Notes: a model not told the origin generated them from the letters alone. 64,000 nucleotides of DNA from Escherichia coli (GCF_045037415.1 NZ_CP173438.1), one strand, 5' to 3'. Counted from the stretch's first letter, positions 13,024-58,400 are shown. Program-made: numbers and translations.

Positions 13024-13193
13024 AATGGCTCACTCAAGCTTGCTCACGATTGATTCCAGTAACAAACCGTATTGTGTAATTATTTCTATAGCAGATCGCT
13101 ATATAGGCTTGTATACATCGAATAATTTGAAAATCAAAGAGATAGGTGGATTTTCACTCGAAAGTAGTATTACTTGTAAGTGAGGAGTAATTA

Positions 13194-13207
13194 TTGTTCG
13201 GTATCAA
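13194..13207. promoter_or_regulatory. FNR-type site (TTGtT-N4-ATCAA) upstream of dmsA
   Basis: ttgttcggtatcaa about 170 bp upstream of the dmsA start; dmsABC is a classical FNR-activated operon; the site lies 13 bp outside the prophage attL core. Confidence 0.45.
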
Positions 13208-13219
13208 AGGGAGACAAAA

Positions 13220-13239
13220 AAAGCGCCCGCAGGCGCTTT
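13220..13239. repeat. attL core (20-bp direct repeat aaagcgcccgcaggcgcttt)
   Basis: Exact copy of the sequence at 51877..51896; contains the gcgcccgcaggcgc terminator palindrome. Confidence 0.8.
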
Positions 13240-13322
13240 AACGTTTCTTGCCCCTCCTGATGATTTACTTATTTTTCAACGAATAAGCCAAAACAGGGGG
13301 AACAAATTAACACAAATTATAA

Positions 13323-14315
13323 CTAATCGATGGACAGTTTATGGACACTTTCAGCCAGCGGATTAAAGTTGATCGCGTCCAGTAAAAAGTCCGGCGAAAA
13401 ATGAGCGTACGTCATTGTTTGCTGAATCGTTGCGTGCCCCAGGATTCGTTGCAACGTAACAATATTTCCGCCATTCATCATAAAGTGTGTGGCAAATGTA
13501 TGACGCATGACATGCGTAGCCTGCCCCTTCGGCAAATCCGGTTTCACCTCCTGAAGAATCTCCCGGAACTTCAGATAATCAACCTGATACAATAACCCCG
13601 TTCGACGGGTTTTAATCAGAGGCACGACCGAATCCGCCACAGGAACCGAACGGGATTTTCCGTTTTTGGTGTTAAAGAACGTCACCCGGTTGCCAACGAT
13701 ATGCTCTCCACGTAGTTCCGATGCTTCACTCCATCGGGCACCAGTAGAAAGACACAGAATGGCAACACGACGCACATCACCCTCCAGTCGCTCAAGAAGC
13801 CGTTCAATCTCATCATCAGAAAGAAAGGCCATCTCTGTGTTCTGAACTTTCAGTTTTCGTATACCGCGTACAGGGTTCGCGTTGTGAAAGACCTCAGCTT
13901 CAATCAGCACCGTGAACATGGTAGACAGTACGCATAAGTCACGATTAATACTGGACGGCATTAATCCGGCCTGTAATTTCTCTGACCGATATTCAAGCAT
14001 AAATTTTCGCGTCATCTGACTGGCGCGAGGATCTCCCATTTCACGAACAACCTTCCCTAGCCTAACCCTGTAGCTATCCCCGTAAGCCTGATTACGCCCA
14101 TCAAGCATCCACCACGCATCAAGCAGCTCTGATAATCGCCGCTGATCAGCTGGCTTAGCCTGCCATGGCTTGTCATGAAAGTTCTGTAACACATACTTCT
14201 CAAACTCCTGAGCCTTTGATTTCAGGGCAAAGATTTTTCGAATCCGCTTTCCTTCCGCCCCCTGCGGTCTGACATCGACCTGATAACGTCCGTCTTTGAG
14301 TTGCTTAATCGACAT
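13323..14315 (-). CDS. int: P2-type tyrosine integrase
   Basis: ORF 13323..14330 trimmed to MSIKQLKDGRYQVDVRP...; closely parallels the recalled P2 Int (MAIKKLDDGRYEVDIRP...), with ILCLSTGARW, HVMRHTFATHF and LGHATIQQTMTYAHF catalytic motifs. Confidence 0.9.
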   Translation of the reverse strand: MSIKQLKDGRYQVDVRPQGAEGKRIRKIFALKSKAQEFEKYVLQNFHDKPWQAKPADQRRLSELLDAWWMLDGRNQAYGDSYRVRLGKVVREMGDPRASQMTRKFMLEYRSEKLQAGLMPSSINRDLCVLSTMFTVLIEAEVFHNANPVRGIRKLKVQNTEMAFLSDDEIERLLERLEGDVRRVAILCLSTGARWSEASELRGEHIVGNRVTFFNTKNGKSRSVPVADSVVPLIKTRRTGLLYQVDYLKFREILQEVKPDLPKGQATHVMRHTFATHFMMNGGNIVTLQRILGHATIQQTMTYAHFSPDFLLDAINFNPLAESVHKLSID

Positions 14316-14384
14316 GATTAGCCCCTCCAACGGATAAATTAACTAAACACTCCTTGCGATATGTAATTCGCTCAATGTGTAGAG

Positions 14385-18408: not shown

Positions 18409-18730
18409 GAAACCAGAGCATGCACACACAAAAAAACCGCTTGCCATGCCGCAATCAGTCAGGTTACATTTCCGCTGCACCTCATAAAACGGGTGCCGGG
18501 TTTCGCAGCCTGCTGACTACACAAGCGCACAACCGCGCCAGCGGTTTTTTTGTGCGTACTGTATTGCCACGTTTTTTTCGCGTCAGAATTATGGCGGGGC
18601 GTACGGGGCCGACTTCGGTCGGGCCGGGTTCTTGTGTAGCCGGTACTGCGAACCTCGTACGTCTCGCCACCCACAGTTTCGCAGCTCTGGATGGTGAGTT
18701 TTCACAACTTACTACACAAGGGGCCACACC

Positions 18731-39407: not shown

Positions 39408-41393
39408 ATGAGTACCACAACACGTAAATTTAAAACCGTTATCACCGATACGGGTGCCAAAAAATTAGCTCAGGCAGCCGCGCCAGATGGTAAGCCTGTC
39501 CGCCTGACTCATATGGCCGTGGGCGACGGTGGCGGCACGTTGCCCACACCAGACAGTAAGCAGACCCGTCTGGTGCATGAGGTGTGGCGACATACTGTTA
39601 ATCGCGTCATCCTGGACGCAACACATCAGAACCGCATTATTGCGGAGCTGGTTATTCCTCCTGAAACGGGCGGATTCTGGATCCGGGAAATTGGTGTATT
39701 TGATGAGCACGGCGATTTAATCGCGGTGGGCAATACTGCCGAAAGTTACAAGCCAGCCGTTGCCGAAGGGTCCGGTCGTGCACAAACATTTCGCACCATT
39801 CTGACCGTATCCAGCACTGCCACCGTGGTGCTTACCGTGGATAACACCATGGTGATGGCCACAGTGGATTACGTGGATGACAAACTGAAAGAGCATGAAC
39901 AGTCACGACGTCACCCGGACGCCTCGCTGACCGCAAAAGGCTTTGTTCAACTCAGTAGCGCCACTAACAGCGTGTCTGAAACGCAGGCTGCAACGCCGAA
40001 AGCAGTAAAGGCCGCGTATGACCTTGCTAACGGTAAATATACTGCGCAGGATGCCAGCACGACGCGAAAAGGCCTTGTCCAGCTCAGTAGCGCCACCAAC
40101 AGCACGTCTGAAACGCAGGCTGCAACGCCGAAAGCAGTAAAGGCCGCGTATGACCTTGCTAACGCAAAATATACCGCTCAGGACGCCACGACGGCACAAA
40201 AAGGGATAGTCCAGCTCAGTAGTGCCACCAACAGCACGTCTGAAACACTGGCCGCGACATCGAAAGCTGTTAAGGCGGTAATGGATGAAACGAACAAGAA
40301 AGCGCCCTTAAATAGTCCTGCACTGACCGGAACGCCAACAACACCAACTGCGCGACAGGGAACGAATAATACCCAAATCGCAAGCACGGCTTTCGTTATG
40401 GCTGCGATTGCCGCCCTTGTAGATTCGTCACCTGATGCACTGAACACGCTGAACGAGCTGGCTGCGGCGCTGGGCAACGACCCGAATTTTGCGACCACCA
40501 TGACTAACGCGCTTGCGGGTAAGCAACCGAAAGATGCCACCCTGACGGCGCTGGCCGGACTTACTACTGCGGCAGGCAAGTTTCCGTATTTTACGGGGAA
40601 TGATGTCGCCAGCCTGGCAACCCTGACAAAAGTCGGGCGGGATATTCTTGCGAAATCGACCGTTGCTGCCGTTATCGAATACCTCGGTTTACGAGAACTC
40701 GGCACAAGCGGGGAGAAAATACCGTTACTCAGTACAGCGAATACCTGGACCAATCGACAAACATTCAGCGGTGGCCTTTCTGGGGAACTGTCCGGCAATG
40801 CCGCTACTGCAACAAAGCTGAAAACAGCACGAAAAATTGCTGGAGTTGGTTTTGATGGTTCTAGCGATATTTCAATTAGTGCCAAAAATGTCAATGCATT
40901 TGCACTCCGACAAACAGGTAATACTGTTAATGGTGATACATCCGTTGGATGGAATTGGGATAGTGGTGCATATAACGCCATGATTGGTGGTGCATCTGCA
41001 TTAATTCTTCACTTTAATATAAATGCTGGTAGCTGTCCTGCCGTACAATTCCGTGTGAATTATAAAAATGGTGGCATTTCCTACAGGTCGGCTCGTGATG
41101 GTTATGGGTTTGAATTAGGTTGGTCAGATTTCTATACCACGACACGAAAACCTTCAGCGGGAGATGTTGGTGCATATACGCGGACAGAATGTAACTCAAG
41201 GTTTATTACAGGTATTCGCCTTGGCGGTCTGTCATCTGTTCAGACATGGAATGGTCCCGGCTGGTCTGACAGGTCAGGTTATGTCGTTACGGGTTCAGTT
41301 AACGGAAACCGTGATGAATTAATTGATACAACACAGGCAAGGCCAATTCAGTATTGCATTAATGGGACGTGGTATAACGCGGGGAGTATTTAA
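39408..41393 (+). CDS. Tail fibre protein (P2 gpH-like); C-terminal third lies inside the invertible segment
   Basis: 661 aa; internal 44-aa tandem repeats; the gix-like crossover site at 40672..40697 lies inside the gene. Confidence 0.85.
   Translation: MSTTTRKFKTVITDTGAKKLAQAAAPDGKPVRLTHMAVGDGGGTLPTPDSKQTRLVHEVWRHTVNRVILDATHQNRIIAELVIPPETGGFWIREIGVFDEHGDLIAVGNTAESYKPAVAEGSGRAQTFRTILTVSSTATVVLTVDNTMVMATVDYVDDKLKEHEQSRRHPDASLTAKGFVQLSSATNSVSETQAATPKAVKAAYDLANGKYTAQDASTTRKGLVQLSSATNSTSETQAATPKAVKAAYDLANAKYTAQDATTAQKGIVQLSSATNSTSETLAATSKAVKAVMDETNKKAPLNSPALTGTPTTPTARQGTNNTQIASTAFVMAAIAALVDSSPDALNTLNELAAALGNDPNFATTMTNALAGKQPKDATLTALAGLTTAAGKFPYFTGNDVASLATLTKVGRDILAKSTVAAVIEYLGLRELGTSGEKIPLLSTANTWTNRQTFSGGLSGELSGNAATATKLKTARKIAGVGFDGSSDISISAKNVNAFALRQTGNTVNGDTSVGWNWDSGAYNAMIGGASALILHFNINAGSCPAVQFRVNYKNGGISYRSARDGYGFELGWSDFYTTTRKPSAGDVGAYTRTECNSRFITGIRLGGLSSVQTWNGPGWSDRSGYVVTGSVNGNRDELIDTTQARPIQYCINGTWYNAGSI
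39937..40290 (+). repeat. Three tandem 132-bp (44-codon) repeats within the tail-fibre gene
   Basis: Units begin at about 39937, 40069 and 40201, each encoding KG-VQLSSATNS-SETQAATPKAVKAAYDLAN-KYTAQDA; the third is diverged. Confidence 0.75.
40672..40697. promoter_or_regulatory. gix/cix-like invertase crossover site (left)
   Basis: ttatcgaatacctcggtttacgagaa, compared with recalled Mu gixL TTATCCAAAACCTCGGTTTACAGGAA; in inverted orientation to the site at 43420..43445. Confidence 0.7.
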
Positions 41394-49713: not shown

Positions 49714-49870
49714 AGCTTCAGCCCCTTGTATCCGTTAAATGATTCGGCAACAATCATCACCCACCACGCGCGTAATCTCACCCCTGCGCCGTTCTCCCGC
49801 CACGGCGACAACAAAAAGCAGTAACCCCCTCCGCACGCACATGCGACCATGCCGCACAGGGAGGGAGCAG

Positions 49871-50980
49871 ATGACCGACACCACCATGCAATTGCTCAGT
49901 CAGGGCACAGACCCCGTGAAAATGCCGGATTTTGATATTCTCGCGGAGGGTAAAACGCTGTCAGGCGTGGCAGAGCGCCTGATGAGCCTGTCACTGACCG
50001 ACAACCGGGGATTTGAGGCGGACCAGCTCACCATCACGCTGGATGATGCGGATGGTCAGTTGCAGCTACCGCCACGGGGCGCGCGCCTGACGGTTCTCAT
50101 TGGCTGGAAAGGAGAACCGCTGACAGAAAAAGGCACTTACATTGTTGATGAAATCGCTCACGAAGGACCGCCGGACAGGCTGACTGTTTCAGCCAGAAGC
50201 GCAGATTTTCGGGATGAATTTAACGTTAAACGTGAGGTGTCCTGGCATGATGTGACCGTTGAGCGTGTGGTATCCGCCATCGCTCATCGGTATGGTCTGA
50301 AACCGCAAATCAGCGAAATGCTGATGGATATCGAAATCGACCACGCCGACCAGACCGAAGAAAGCGACATGTCCTTCCTTACGCGCATGGCGGAAATGCT
50401 GGGCGCAATCACCACGGTAAAAAGCGGTAATCTGTTATTCATCATGCCCGGCGGTGGCGTGAACGCACAGGGCCAGCCGTTGCCATCGTTTGCCATCACA
50501 CGCAGCAGCGGCGATCGCCATCAGTTCCGCATTGCTGACCGCGAAGCGTATACGGGGGTACGCGCTTACTGGCTTGATCTTAATTACGGGAAAAAGAAAA
50601 AAGTCAGCGTGAAACGCCGTAAACCGCCAAAACCCAAAAAGGAGAAAAGCAGCAGCCGCGAAGGTGATTATATGGAAGGCGCGGAAGGCAATGTGTTTGT
50701 GTTACGCAAGACTTATCAGAACGAGCAGGCAGCAAGACGCGCAGCGGCGGCAAAGTGGCAGCAACTACAACGCGGAGCCGCATCATTCTCCATCACGCTG
50801 GCGCGTGGACGTGCAGAACTCTACCCCGAAATGCATGGCACGGTAACAGGATTTAAAAGCGAGATTGATAATCAGGACTGGATCATTGCAAAAGCCGAGC
50901 ACACCATTGATAACAGCGGTTTTACCACGCAGCTTGAGCTTGAGGCAAAAATCCCGGAATGGATAGCGGAAACAGAGTGA
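49871..50980 (+). CDS. Tail protein D (P2 gpD-like, late control gene D)
   Basis: ORF 49739..50980 trimmed to ATG 49871 with RBS gggaggg; about 370 aa; assigned by size and position next to ogr. Confidence 0.7.
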   Translation: MTDTTMQLLSQGTDPVKMPDFDILAEGKTLSGVAERLMSLSLTDNRGFEADQLTITLDDADGQLQLPPRGARLTVLIGWKGEPLTEKGTYIVDEIAHEGPPDRLTVSARSADFRDEFNVKREVSWHDVTVERVVSAIAHRYGLKPQISEMLMDIEIDHADQTEESDMSFLTRMAEMLGAITTVKSGNLLFIMPGGGVNAQGQPLPSFAITRSSGDRHQFRIADREAYTGVRAYWLDLNYGKKKKVSVKRRKPPKPKKEKSSSREGDYMEGAEGNVFVLRKTYQNEQAARRAAAAKWQQLQRGAASFSITLARGRAELYPEMHGTVTGFKSEIDNQDWIIAKAEHTIDNSGFTTQLELEAKIPEWIAETE

Positions 50981-51020: not shown

Positions 51021-51281
51021 ATGTTCCGTTGTCCGCTTTGTGGCGCATCTGCCCGTATCCGCACCAGTCGTCCGGAAAATGATTCAAACACCGTGCGGCA
51101 AAAGTATTACCAGTGTAACAATCTGGAATGCGGCGTATGCTTCTCAACACTGGAAGCTTTCCATAAATTCACATCAAAACACGCCTCCGGCGTTCACTCT
51201 TCAGAAGGTATCCCGTGGCATGATCTGCCAGCTTCACACAGGGGAAACAATCAGATGAGTTTGCCTTTATCTCAGAATTAA
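51021..51281 (+). CDS. ogr: Ogr/Delta-type zinc-finger late transcription activator
   Basis: MFRCPLCGASARIRTSR...YYQCNNLECGVCF has the CxxC...CxxxxC pattern and parallels recalled P2 Ogr. Confidence 0.8.
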   Translation: MFRCPLCGASARIRTSRPENDSNTVRQKYYQCNNLECGVCFSTLEAFHKFTSKHASGVHSSEGIPWHDLPASHRGNNQMSLPLSQN

Positions 51282-51472
51282 CAGGCAGAATTGCCGGAGT
51301 AACAAAAAAGCGATAGATTACGTGCGGGTGCCTTTCGGCTGATGGTCGGAGGGAATACCCGAAGGCCAGATGTGGAAAGGCCCCGAGTCAACTTTAACGT
51401 TAACCCGAGGCCCTAACCATCTACCCTCAGCAAGTGATAGGTTAGCGCCTCCCCGAAAAAGGAGCAAGCGCT

Positions 51473-51613
51473 ATGTCGCAAAAATCGCTTACGGCCATCA
51501 CATTCTGCGTGACGGCAATCCTCATCATCTGGATGCTGCACGGTTCGCTGTGTGAAATACGGATGAGTTTCTGGGGAGCGGAGTTTGCGGCGTTCTTACA
51601 GTGTAAGCAGTAA
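51473..51613 (+). CDS. Hok/Gef-family type I toxin (46 aa), with overlapping mok-like frame 51370..51555
   Basis: MSQKSLTAITFCVTAILIIWMLHGSLCEIRMSFWGAEFAAFLQCKQ: N-terminal TM then the SLCEIR signature and an E-AAF block as in Hok; RBS aggag. Confidence 0.6.
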   Translation: MSQKSLTAITFCVTAILIIWMLHGSLCEIRMSFWGAEFAAFLQCKQ

Positions 51614-51707
51614 GGAAACCGCGACGGGGAAGGCAACTTCCCCGTCAATCGGTTGCCAGGGTAAAGGTCGAAAAGGCACCCTATTTCCAGTTGACGTGAA
51701 CAACAAG

Positions 51708-51739
51708 CCCGCAGCGTAAAAACTGCGGGTTTTCTTTTT
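51708..51739 (+). terminator. Intrinsic terminator downstream of the hok-like gene
   Basis: cccgcag-cgtaaaaa-ctgcggg followed by ttttcttttt. Confidence 0.6.
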
Positions 51740-51772
51740 GGTTCCCTCACTCATGAGGACACCAAAAAACAA

Positions 51773-51803
51773 AGCCCACAGCATAGAAGCTGTGGGCTTT
51801 TTG
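51773..51803 (+). terminator. Second intrinsic terminator
   Basis: agcccacagc-atagaa-gctgtgggct followed by ttttt. Confidence 0.55.
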
Positions 51804-51876
51804 CATTCAAAGATGGACGTTATATGGACACTTAAAAATAAAATCCATTTATTTTCAAATGATTAAACCTCTACTT

Positions 51877-51896
51877 AAAGCGCCCGCAGGCGCTTT
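51877..51896. repeat. attR core (20-bp direct repeat), also the serS terminator
   Basis: Exact copy of 13220..13239; lies about 22 bp downstream of the serS stop. Confidence 0.8.
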
Positions 51897-51918
51897 TTAG
51901 ATTCAGAAAAATTGGGTA

Positions 51919-53232
<1,314 letters not shown>

Positions 53233-55425: not shown

Positions 55426-58400
55426 TTAGTCAAACGGCGGTGGGGCCAGCACTTCACGATTACCGTTGTGCCCCTGTTCGCTGACAATCCCCTGCGCTTC
55501 CATCTGTTCGATAATACGCGCTGCACGGTTATAACCAATGCGGAACTGACGCTGTACGCCAGAAATTGATGCTTTGCGTTTTTCAGTGACAAACTGCACC
55601 GCCTGATCGAACAACGGATCCAGCTCTTCAGCGCCATCGAAACCGCCCGCGCCACCTTCGCTTTCGCTGTCGGAGGTGATGCCATCAACATACTGTGGGC
55701 GACCACGCGCTTTCCAGTCCTGCACCACGGCATGAACTTCTTGATCGCGAACAAAAGCACCATGGACACGTACCGGCAAAGTGGAGTTCGGCCCAGAGTA
55801 GAGCATATCCCCCATACCCAGCAGTGATTCCGCACCAGCCTGATCAAGAATGGTACGTGAGTCAATCTTACTGGATACGGTAAAGGCGATACGGGTCGGA
55901 ATATTCGCTTTAATCAGACCAGTAATAACATCAACCGATGGACGCTGCGTTGCCAGTACGAGGTGGATACCCGCGGCACGAGCTTTTTGCGCCAGACGTG
56001 CTATCAGCTCTTCCACTTTTTTACCTACCGTCATCATCAGGTCGGCAAATTCGTCCACCAACACCACTATGTACGGTTCTTTTTTCAGCACCGGATGCTG
56101 CGCATCCATACTATCACCCGGCTTCCAGTACGGGTCTGGAATCGGACGCATCATGCGATCGGCTTCAGCAATTTTTTCGTTATAACCCGCCAGATTACGC
56201 ACACCCAGCGCAGACATCAGTTTATAACGACGCTCCATCTCGTTAACACACCAGCGCAGCGCGTTGGCGGCATCTTTCATATCAGTAACAACTTCCGTTA
56301 ACAGGTGCGGAATGCCTTCATAAACCGAAAGCTCCAGCATTTTCGGGTCGATCATGATGAAACGCACATCTTCTGGCTGTGCTTTATAAAGCATGCTCAG
56401 GATCATCGCGTTCACCCCGACAGACTTACCGGAACCGGTAGTCCCCGCAACCAACAAGTGCGGCATTTTCGCCAGATCGGCAACCACCGGCTCACCGGCG
56501 ATATCTTTACCCAGCACCACGGTTAATGGCGACGGATTATCGCGGAATTTGGCGTTATCCAAAACCTCGCGCAGATAAACGGTTTGTCGTTTTTTATTCG
56601 GTAACTCCAGACCTACATAGGGTTTGCCAGGAATAACTTCAACGACACGCACCGCCACCGTCGAAAGTGAACGGGCAAGGTCACGTGACAAGTTAGAAAT
56701 GCGCGCCGCTTTTACGCCCGGTGCCAGGTTCAATTCAAAGCGAGTGATAACTGGCCCCGGAGAGTAATTGACAACATCGGCTTTAATACGGAAATCAGCC
56801 AGACGCGCTTCTACCAGGCGCGCCATTTGTTCAAGCGCAAAGGTATCTACCGGCTCCACTTCGCTCGGCGGCGGTGTCAGCAAATCCAGAGAAGGCAGTG
56901 GCGTCGTCGGTTTATGCAACGGACGGCTGTCGCCATTACGCATCAACAGCGGATGAAGCAGGGTATCCTGCGGCTGTGGCGCAACTGGCTGTTGCGGCTG
57001 CTGATATTGCGGCTGTGGTACAACCGGCTGCTGCGGCTGCTGATACTGCGGCTGCTGTGTAACCGGCTGTTGTGGCTGCTGATACTGCGGCTGCTGTGCA
57101 ACCGGTTGTTGTGGCTGCTGATATTGCTGCTGCGGTGCAACCGGTTGTTGCGGCTGCTGATACTGCGGCTGCGGTGCAACCGGTTGTTGCGGCTGCTGAT
57201 ATTGCTGCTGCGGTGCTACCGGTTGTTGCGGCTGCTGTACAGGTTCAACAATTGGCGTAAACAGCGGTTCGTGTGGACCATCATCCAGCAACGCTTTCAT
57301 TGGCGAAAATTCAAAATCATCCAGCGAGAACGGATTCGCCCCAGCCGGTTGTTCGCCGGAATAACGTTGTTGTTGAGTTTGAGCAAACTGACGAGCCAGT
57401 TCTGCCTCTGCCGCAGCATCTGCATCTTCTGTGTTCACGGGCACATCATGTTGATACTGTTCGCCATAGCGTTGCTGCTGCGTCTGGGCGAACTGACGTG
57501 CCAGTTCATCCTGCTGCATCGCATCGATTTCATCATCGTTGTACTGATCGCCAGAATCGTACTGATTACGCTGGGCTTCACGGGCTTTTTCTTCTGCCGC
57601 ACGCTGTGAGGGCAGCTTAATACCGTAAGACGCCAGTTCACGACGAGTTGGCACGCGGATGCGTTTCGGTCGTGGCAACTGCGGGCCAATCCCCTCTTTG
57701 ACCTGCGGACGCGGTCCACCGCTATTTGCCAGACTGAAGACTGGCGCGGCAACGGTTGCGGCAGCCCCCGTCGCCAGTGTCGCTTTTTTCACGCCAGATG
57801 CCAGCGGAGAAACGGCGGCAGCGGCTTCCACTGGAGGTACTGCTGCAACAGAAGGTGCTTTTAGCGAAGATTTGATCGGTTCTGGTTCTTTAACAGGTTC
57901 TGGAATCGGTTGATACCAGGCCGCAAGTTGTTCGCGTTCACGGGCTCGCTTCTCTTCCACTTCTTCAAAGTAGTAAAGCGGCGGACGCGTGGGTTTTGTC
58001 TCTTCTACAACGGGTTCAGGCTCCACAACAGGCTGCTGTTCAACAGGTTGCGGCTGTTGGTACAACGGTTCCTGAGCGGCTGGCTGCTGATAAGTTTGCT
58101 CAGTCTGGTATGTAGACTGTGGAGCAAAAGTGGATTGCTGCTCTTCGGCTTGCCAGGCGTTACCTGCCACCGCTTGTTCTGGCGCAGGGGCGTAATACGG
58201 CTGTTGCGCAGGCTGTTCCGCCGCAGTTGCGTAATACGGTTGCTGAACAGGTTGTTCCGCCGCAGGAGCGTAGTAAGGTTGTTGCGCAGGTTGTTCAGCT
58301 GCAGGTGCATAATACGGCTGCTGTGGCTGTACTGGTTGTTGCAGCGGCTCATTATATTGCACTGCAGGCTGCGCATATTGTGGCTGCTGTGGGTAACCTT

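Follow-up and report, generated by a model that had tools for sequence, protein, structure and literature searches.

Near the right-hand end of a prophage in Escherichia coli (NZ_CP173438.1), a 46-codon open reading frame (ORF) is overlapped by a 61-codon ORF in another frame, which raises the question of whether this locus is a complete hok/mok/sok module and, if not, which of its parts are present and how they might act together. The locus was analysed within the whole 64,000-nt stretch of DNA in which it lies (the window), and the overall explanation, which is considered likely, is a prophage hok/sok-type type I toxin-antitoxin module that works by an R1-like mechanism without mok.

The boundaries of the prophage are given by two copies of a 20-bp direct repeat, AAAGCGCCCGCAGGCGCTTT:

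13220-13239, no strand: attL core, the twin of the attR core (direct repeat and K-12 alignment)
51877-51896, no strand: attR core, which is also the serS terminator (direct repeat and K-12 alignment)

When the window is aligned with the uninterrupted K-12 serS-dmsA spacer, the dmsA-side flank resumes at the left repeat and the serS-side flank at the right repeat. Because the flanks are split in this way relative to the empty K-12 site, the segment of approximately 38.6 kb between the repeats is an integrated element, and an integrase-sized ORF (13323-14330) is found at its left end. At the other end, the hok locus is preceded by a tail gene resembling P2 gpD (49739-50980) and by a zinc-finger gene of the ogr/Delta type (51021-51281), and is followed by serS (51919-53211, minus strand); the nearest phages are P88/Xuanwuvirus (P2-like). 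The hok locus itself is inside the prophage, 135-550 bp away from the attR core, and the location at the attR end proposed in the first-pass annotation is borne out by the 20-bp repeat and the alignment to K-12 serS-dmsA. In addition, many ST131-type chromosomes match the region 51280-51920 at 100% identity.

The identity of the toxin is the next point to be settled.

51473-51613, plus strand: hok toxin gene encoding a 46-aa peptide, MSQKSLTAITFCVTAILIIWMLHGSLCEIRMSFWGAEFAAFLQCKQ (Pfam, PHROG, RefSeq and homologs)

The SLCEIR and AEFAAF motifs from which the gene had first been recognized are both present in the peptide, and profile searches place it, as had been proposed, in the Hok/Gef family: Pfam HOK_GEF (PF01848) matches residues 7-44 on model positions 5-42 of 42 (i-E=4.8e-7), and PHROG 251, 'MokW-like host killing', matches with E=1.3e-22. 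The RefSeq entry for the peptide is WP_000078916.1, 'Hok/Gef family protein'. Among 5.8 billion proteins searched, there were 67 relatives; they come from Escherichia, Shigella, Salmonella and Klebsiella, all those with a name are called Hok/Gef or HokA, and nearly all full-length homologs are exactly 46 aa long. All seven residues conserved in more than 80% of Hok peptides according to the published logo are present, M1, C12, T14, L26, C27, E28 and E37 corresponding to logo positions M1, C16, T18, L30, C31, E32 and E41, and the second Cys is at position 44. Among the relatives of the ORF, codon position 2 is the least variable, as expected of a protein under selection. On the other hand, the peptide scores 34 bits with the HokA equivalog NF007290 (cut-off 89) and 21.6 bits with the Hok subfamily model NF007279 (cut-off 73). 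By its sequence, the peptide is a distinct cluster and not HokA, and it belongs to the Hok '60% identity cluster 72' of Escalera-Maurer et al., whose members include 72_1621 and 72_1589 (bioRxiv 10.1101/2025.08.07.668861). In fact, the peptide of 72_1621 is identical to the window toxin; it was drawn from a 'high abundance cluster' and cloned as LRP137 for toxicity testing (bioRxiv 10.1101/2025.08.07.668861). Only 19_179, 60_1482 and 69_1540 are reported to be non-toxic among the 45 Hok homologs tested, and 72_1621 is not listed with them (bioRxiv 10.1101/2025.08.07.668861). By that account 72_1621 is toxic when overexpressed, and a finding that the first-pass annotation had named as speaking against a Hok toxin, namely a peptide that is harmless upon overexpression, is not what the published test gave for the identical peptide.

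Since many ORFs of such length arise by chance in 64 kb, the 46-codon ORF might be imagined as a chance frame with a fortuitous hydrophobic segment and no gene at all. This possibility is ruled out by homology, with E-values down to 1e-22, by conservation in other genera and by the published toxicity test of the identical peptide, and its probability is considered to be practically nil.

The coordinates of the hok mRNA were calibrated by running the Rfam model RF01794 on K-12 hokB and hokC. This model is named 'sok' but in fact covers the first 157 nt of hok mRNAs: its position 1 is the mRNA 5' end (GGGUGC...), and its last three bases are the hokC AUG, the hokB AUG lying 3 nt upstream. In the window, RF01794 matches 51326-51486 on the plus strand end to end with 42.8 bits (E=5.4e-8), below its gathering score of 59; the corresponding scores are 47.9 for P88, 33.1 for the Stx copy and 110-118 bits for hokB and hokC, whose mok AUG is replaced by AUC in the window. 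Position 1 of the model aligns to 51326, and if the 5' end is at approximately 51326, the hok start is nt 148 of the mRNA. This leader length matches that of K-12 hokB/mokB/sokB and hokC(gef)/mokC/sokC, in which the hok AUG is at nt 147-151. The elements of the transcript are as follows:

51291-51319, plus strand: predicted hok promoter, with -35 TTGCCG (51291-51296), a 17-nt spacer and -10 TAGATT (51314-51319) (sequence reading and relatives)
51326-51742, plus strand: full-length hok mRNA, approximately 415 nt (5' end taken from the family, 3' end at the terminator)
51326-51339, plus strand: tac element, GGGUGCCUUUCGGC, pairing with fbi in the full-length RNA or with ucb in the processed RNA (folds, alifold and pair counts)
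51378-51384, plus strand: ucb, AGGCCCC, pairing with dcb in the full-length RNA or with tac in the processed RNA (fold and pair counts)
51407-51451, plus strand: Sok-target hairpin of the processed mRNA (fold and pairing in relatives)
51449-51464, plus strand: anti-SD CUCC (51449-51452) and hok SD GGAG (51461-51464) (sequence, folds and pair counts)
51617-51654, core 51622-51647, plus strand: 3' stem-loop, the presumed end of the processed active mRNA (five compensatory pairs; no plus-strand T-tract)
51666-51681, plus strand: fbi element, GGUCGAAAAGGCACCC, complementary to tac (folds, alifold and pair counts)
51705-51742, plus strand: intrinsic terminator of the hok transcript (terminator scan; compensating hairpin in relatives)
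51771-51800, no strand: second hairpin with A-run and T-run flanks, situated in the att arm of the phage, past the hok transcript (scored as a terminator on the minus strand only)

In 23 of 25 relatives, a hok -10 box (TAGAAT, TAGATT, TAAATT or TAGAGT) is located 6-7 nt ahead of GCGGGTGCC. A generic sigma-70 scan of 51200-51950 on both strands gave no promoter above threshold, and the hok and Sok promoter calls therefore derive from positional homology and conservation. The two strong terminators described in the first-pass annotation are reduced to one on the plus strand, at 51705-51742: the hairpin that follows the stop codon lacks a T-tract, and that at 51771-51800 would serve the minus strand only. 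The latter is also found in an E. albertii copy (L011) and is absent from P88 and from one other relative (L010).

To examine the folding of this RNA across the family, a whole-transcript alignment of 24-25 distinct relatives with their flanks was assembled from genomes and phages. In both the RNAalifold consensus and the minimum-free-energy fold, GGGUGCC (51326-32) pairs with GGCACCC (51675-81) plus an extension, the fbi core GGCACCC being near-invariant among relatives. The full-length structure is 95.9% paired across the relatives, compared with 30-47% when the partners are slid, and 17 pairs are changed on both sides in 24 relatives; compensatory changes affect four of the five pairs of the tac-fbi extension, three of the five ucb-dcb pairs and five pairs of the 3' stem-loop. 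The 5'-3' pairing of tac and fbi in a long structured 3' region, which the first-pass annotation had suggested should be sought, is thus found and is backed by covariation. Folding of 51326-51686 or 51326-51740 gives the closed tac-fbi form. Once the 3' tail is removed, folding of 51326-51657, a truncation point that is presumed, gives a tac-ucb stem together with the hairpin 51407-51451, and the unpaired probability of the Sok-target loop in the window sequence rises from 0.35 in the full-length form to 0.90 in the processed form. This processed structure is 94.9% paired across 24 relatives, and 93.6% of the cells of the target hairpin are paired. At the base of the hairpin GAGGC is paired with GCCUC, GAGGC being the mok SD in canonical loci, and the loop, CCUCAGCAA at 51425-51433, carries a YUNR motif at its start; such motifs are reportedly tied to U-turn loops. 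As modelled here, the predicted RNA switch of the window is the classic hok folding pathway (PMC9841398). The R1 counterpart of the 3' stem-loop, nt 345-358, protects the truncated mRNA (PMC9841398).

The translation initiation region behaves differently in the folds. The hok SD GGAG sits in a consensus AAGGAG, 7 nt before the ATG, and is enclosed in a conserved local hairpin, UAGCGCCUCC...GGAG...GCGCUA; in addition, the first codons form a helix with the EFAA codons. This hairpin and the coding helix hold the hok SD and AUG paired to about two-thirds to three-quarters, whichever state is predicted. Even where copies have otherwise diverged, the coding segments that form helices show no change, synonymous sites included, which points to selection at the RNA level. 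A scheme in which the SD becomes free upon truncation and is covered again when Sok binds finds no support from equilibrium folding of the 24 relatives, in which the unpaired probabilities of the hok SD and AUG barely shift (SD means of 0.33 in the full-length form, 0.36 in the processed form and 0.33 in the processed form with Sok).

Opposite this leader, a search of the minus strand, as had been suggested for a Sok-like RNA, yielded a predicted antisense RNA at approximately 51431 to 51373, close to the place suggested, with a predicted promoter ahead of it:

51431 to 51373 (approximate), minus strand: predicted Sok-like antisense RNA, approximately 58-60 nt (fold and alignment with sokB and sokC)
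51439-51467, minus strand: predicted Sok promoter, with -35 TTGCTC (51467-51462), a 17-nt spacer, -10 TAACCT (51444-51439) and the start 7 nt further on, at approximately 51431 (sokB geometry)

In the predicted RNA, a 5' tail of 12 unpaired nt is followed by a 16-bp terminator hairpin (-30.1 kcal/mol, z = -5.4), whose U-tract is short in the window allele (UUUCC). On alignment, the start and the hairpin of this RNA fall at the same positions as those of annotated sokB and sokC, which are complementary to mRNA nt 43-102, and the annotated sokB promoter geometry, TTGCCG-17-TAAGAT-7-G, is matched by TTGCTC-17-TAACCT-7-G in the window. The predicted promoter agrees with the consensus at 6 of 12 positions and falls below the generic sigma-70 scan. 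Among the 25 unique relatives, 21 have TAACCT as this -10 box and two have TATCCT; the other two, with TAAGCT, are degenerate copies (L033 and L034). Nowhere is the leader more variable among relatives than in the mRNA segment that faces the Sok tail, as expected of a specificity determinant. By these predicted elements, a putative Sok-like antisense gene with a conserved -10 box and a very stable hairpin faces the hok leader.

The remaining part of a canonical locus is mok, for which the overlapping frame had been proposed:

51370-51555, plus strand: 61-codon ORF proposed as mok and judged here to be allele-specific and non-conserved (frame survey of relatives)

This ORF does exist, in a frame other than that of hok and ending within it, and to that extent the proposal stands; no likeness to mok beyond the overlap was confirmed. 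In a canonical hok/mok/sok locus, the 61-codon ORF would be translated, its ribosomes would open the hok initiation region, and Sok would control hok through the ORF. Several features agree with such an arrangement: the frame relation between the ORF and hok is that seen for mokB, GAAGG lies 4 nt upstream of ATG 51370, the predicted unpaired probability of this ATG in the processed form of the window allele is 0.63, and the paired state of the hok SD described above is the very situation that requires mok in R1. However, ATG 51370 is located 103 nt ahead of hok, at mRNA nt 45; this places it on the 3' margin of the segment complementary to Sok and not beneath the Sok 5' tail. The mokC and mokB AUGs are at mRNA nt 89-94, 57 and 58 nt before hok and in the 5' part of the Sok target, and the same frame script recovers both of them (-57 and -58) as a positive control. 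Similarly, in plasmid R1 the mok AUG (nt 116-118) and the hok AUG (nt 174-176) are 58 nt apart. At the canonical mok position, the window has GAGG-8 nt-AUC (51407-51421), the AUC being at 51419, and no AUG, GUG or UUG is found there.

The frame survey of relatives gives the same picture. Of 31 related loci, 29 close the 61-codon frame ahead of hok and only 2 keep it open that far; among the 25 unique relatives, an ORF from ATG 51370 that reaches hok is confined to the window and E. albertii, and in 15 of the 25 no upstream ORF of any kind reaches the hok SD. None of six further E. coli alleles spanning the identity range has the frame open into hok, and these six include two (L036 and L037) whose toxin is identical to that of the window. 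ATG 51370 is present only in E. coli and E. albertii copies, the Salmonella, Klebsiella and Citrobacter copies having AAA or AAG in its place, and in the P88 and Stx-phage copies the frame is absent or closed early. The 61-aa product has no protein-family matches in NCBIfam, PHROG or PADLOC. Other leader ORFs were also considered, running from AUC 51419 or GUG 51434 to a conserved TAG (51443-45), and were set aside since their starts are not conserved (GUG in 13 of 24 relatives, AUC in few). A small probability that ATG 51370 is translated is kept because folding of the processed form predicts moderate accessibility for it in this allele; as an account of the locus, the canonical arrangement is regarded as improbable. 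Read from sequence comparison, the 61-codon ORF is a by-product of the window allele's sequence and not mok, and the cluster-72 hok subfamily seems to lack mok. A search of the openly searchable literature, a scope outside which older subscription-journal papers fall, found no description of a mok-less hok.

The preferred reading, a hok/sok module without mok, can be compared with the known systems. The window locus resembles plasmid R1 hok/mok/sok (parB) in its peptide family, its tac-fbi pairing, its ucb/dcb switch, its target hairpin and its 3' protective stem-loop, as well as in a cis-antisense Sok promoter within the leader, which is a predicted one in the window. It differs in that R1 has mok, its peptide is 46 aa long compared with 52 aa in R1, its hok SD is a consensus AAGGAG, an intrinsic terminator follows fbi, and it is carried by a prophage rather than a plasmid. 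K-12 hokB and hokC, on the other hand, share with the window the order of the hairpins and, going by the predicted Sok of the window, the Sok start, the promoter spacing and the position of the terminator hairpin. Another prophage system, hokW/sokW of the Stx2 prophage Sp5, is RNase III and Hfq dependent and speeds lysis and phage release after induction (PMC8621323). HokW is a 51-aa HokD-like peptide (MKQQKAM...) that differs from the 46-aa toxin of the window, and the possibility that the Stx-phage matches are the published hokW was ruled out, the hokW primers and sequence not fitting them. The cluster-72 copy of the Stx phages adjoins lom and, with 83% DNA identity to the window gene, is a true homolog. 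Since this lom-side copy differs from hokW, Stx phages carry two different hok modules.

The distribution of the module bears on whether it is maintained as a working unit. Without its flanks, it is present in 1542 of 5426 complete E. coli genomes (28%), in up to eight places per genome; it is almost always chromosomal and rare on plasmids. A scan of species-representative genomes gave only seven loci, of which three come from contigs that are probably contaminated or misbinned, and the diversity of the relatives was gathered through exact-protein look-ups. In P2-like prophages, relatives follow ogr at the distal end; in lambdoid prophages they come after tail-fibre genes at the end of the element, and in Stx phages they adjoin lom. 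Some relatives form tandem arrays of two or three. Because relatives recur at the same kinds of prophage position, which is typical of a moron, the cluster-72 hok module has the character of one, and in the window the hok/sok module is the moron that separates ogr from attR, its prophage being P2-like (Xuanwuvirus/P88-like) and integrated at the serS terminator. The published survey likewise reports that hok is enriched in prophages and also occurs in tandem islets, and states that Mok, Sok and the mRNA elements were left unanalysed (bioRxiv 10.1101/2025.08.07.668861). With the PADLOC defence-system models, neither the 46-codon nor the 61-codon ORF gave a match.

A further explanation is that the module is a silent passenger, whose toxin works if forced but which is natively unexpressed or unregulated, like the inactivated K-12 hok loci, and has no role in the prophage. 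This would agree with two promoters that are weak by consensus, with an SD predicted to be sequestered in every state, with the loss of mok, a frame that R1 needs in order to translate hok, and with the existence of the degenerate copies L033 and L034, in which tac is broken and toxin residues are altered. However, ORF length and sequence, both -10 boxes and every helix, the latter with compensatory changes, are kept across Escherichia, Salmonella, Klebsiella and Citrobacter, the synonymous sites of the helix-forming coding segments are invariant, and the module recurs at prophage ends, in tandem arrays and in more than a quarter of E. coli genomes. This conservation, together with the compensatory changes, the invariant synonymous sites and the recurrence, indicates selection on the complete module, and a silent passenger is considered unlikely, if somewhat less so than the canonical arrangement with mok.

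For the functional hok/sok module without mok, a mechanism may be outlined by analogy with R1. A weak constitutive promoter would give a stable full-length mRNA, which, closed by tac-fbi pairing, would be neither translated nor bound by Sok. Slow trimming of the 3' end to the stem-loop 51617-51654 would then remove fbi; consequently, tac would re-pair with ucb, and the freed dcb would make the Sok-target hairpin. As long as the prophage is present, the 5' tail of the unstable Sok RNA would pair with the target loop, and RNase III would destroy the duplex. Once Sok synthesis ends, either through loss of the element or through an infecting phage that halts host transcription, the processed mRNA would be translated, and the 46-aa peptide would depolarise the inner membrane. 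Given that the subfamily has its own strong SD, AAGGAG, and no mok, initiation at hok would be direct. The main effect of Sok would then be decay of the mRNA, release of the GCCUCC anti-SD so that it can pair with the SD again, or both. A more specific proposal is put forward tentatively, as one that deserves some weight but falls short of being probable: in cluster 72, a hok/sok lineage may have stayed functional after losing mok, with every RNA element kept and the old mok SD now serving as a purely structural dcb.

R1 hok/sok acts against T4, through abortive infection when the incoming phage shuts off transcription. By analogy with characterized systems, the possible roles of the module in its prophage are addiction, abortive infection and lysis acceleration, and it may thereby contribute to prophage retention, to abortive infection or to lysis timing. 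The finding as such is already known, since the gene, the family, the toxicity and the prophage enrichment are all on record; its practical value lies in the correct annotation of prophage accessory cargo in ST131-type strains. Beyond this, a common subfamily that has the complete hok RNA switch and seemingly lacks mok offers a natural test of whether leader-peptide coupling is obligatory, a question that covers both the expression of Hok and its control by Sok. If the reading without mok is true, the module would be a variant of the textbook hok mechanism in which Sok does not act by blocking a leader peptide.

The start codon at 51370, which opens the 61-codon frame once proposed as mok, arises from E. 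coli-clade substitutions that change AGAAAAGCGAAAG to AGATGTGGAAAGG (window 51366-51378). On the opposite strand, the same substitutions shorten the U-tract of the Sok antisense RNA terminator, from UUUCGCUUUUCU to UUUCCACAUCU. Consequently, judging from the sequence, Sok termination may be less efficient in the E. coli clade.

In Salmonella prophages, the hok module is present in two or three tandem copies, spaced approximately 498 bp apart and located immediately 3' of ogr (coordinates in each locus's own sequence):

1505-2641, tandem hok modules, Salmonella prophage loci L027-L029
3001-3635, tandem hok modules, Salmonella prophage loci L021 and L022

Every copy in these arrays has a separate leader, Sok promoter and terminator, and the Sok-target region has diverged. 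In the window, a strong hairpin with an A-run and a T-run at its sides (51771-51800) lies between the hok terminator and attR. This hairpin is similar to the terminator found in hok modules of the Salmonella type (AAAAATCAAAGCCCACGGC...) and could be the relic of a second module; alternatively, it could terminate a minus-strand transcript that has gone unrecognised.

Two further hok copies, L033 and L034 (2348-2780), have a degenerate appearance. They retain an intact fbi alongside a mutated tac (GGACACC), their Sok -10 element is altered to TAAGCT, and the toxin has the substitutions W20L/M21I/L22Q and F41I; these copies may represent a module in decay.

The Hok subfamily that includes the window's 46-aa toxin (cluster 72) also occurs in Stx phages, where the module adjoining lom is a second one, besides the published hokW/sokW:

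1670-1810, cluster-72 hok (46 aa) beside lom, Shigella phage 75/02 Stx (L003); likewise in 933W, VT2-Sakai and others

The database label of this Stx-phage gene, "MokW-like host killing", is misleading, because the gene is hok and not mok. The hok of the window was also seen on short contigs assigned to non-enterobacterial genomes, namely a Collinsella MAG (L008), a Planococcaceae MAG (L009) and a Xanthomonas pisi contig (L012), with identities to the E. coli peptide of 98-100% for L008 and L009 and 72% for L012. Most likely, all three reflect contamination or misbinning in public assemblies.

Elsewhere in the window, a 39-nt unit forms a tandem array of seven copies outside the prophage (56926-57276), and a 132-nt unit forms one of two copies inside the prophage late region (39935-40198). 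Three RNAs match Rfam families, isrK and C4 both scoring above the gathering threshold:

13114-13248 (+), sRNA STnc130, 137 bits
18477-18551 (+), isrK Hfq-binding RNA
18587-18674 (+), C4 antisense RNA

The 3' end of STnc130 is the serS terminator, which is also the att core; since prophage integration duplicated this core, the STnc130 gene is still whole at attL, and a 20-nt piece of it recurs at attR (51877-51896). The isrK and C4 RNAs adjoin each other in the prophage early region, and the pair suggests immunity or anti-repressor control resembling the P1/P7-type C4/ant system in a P2-like phage.
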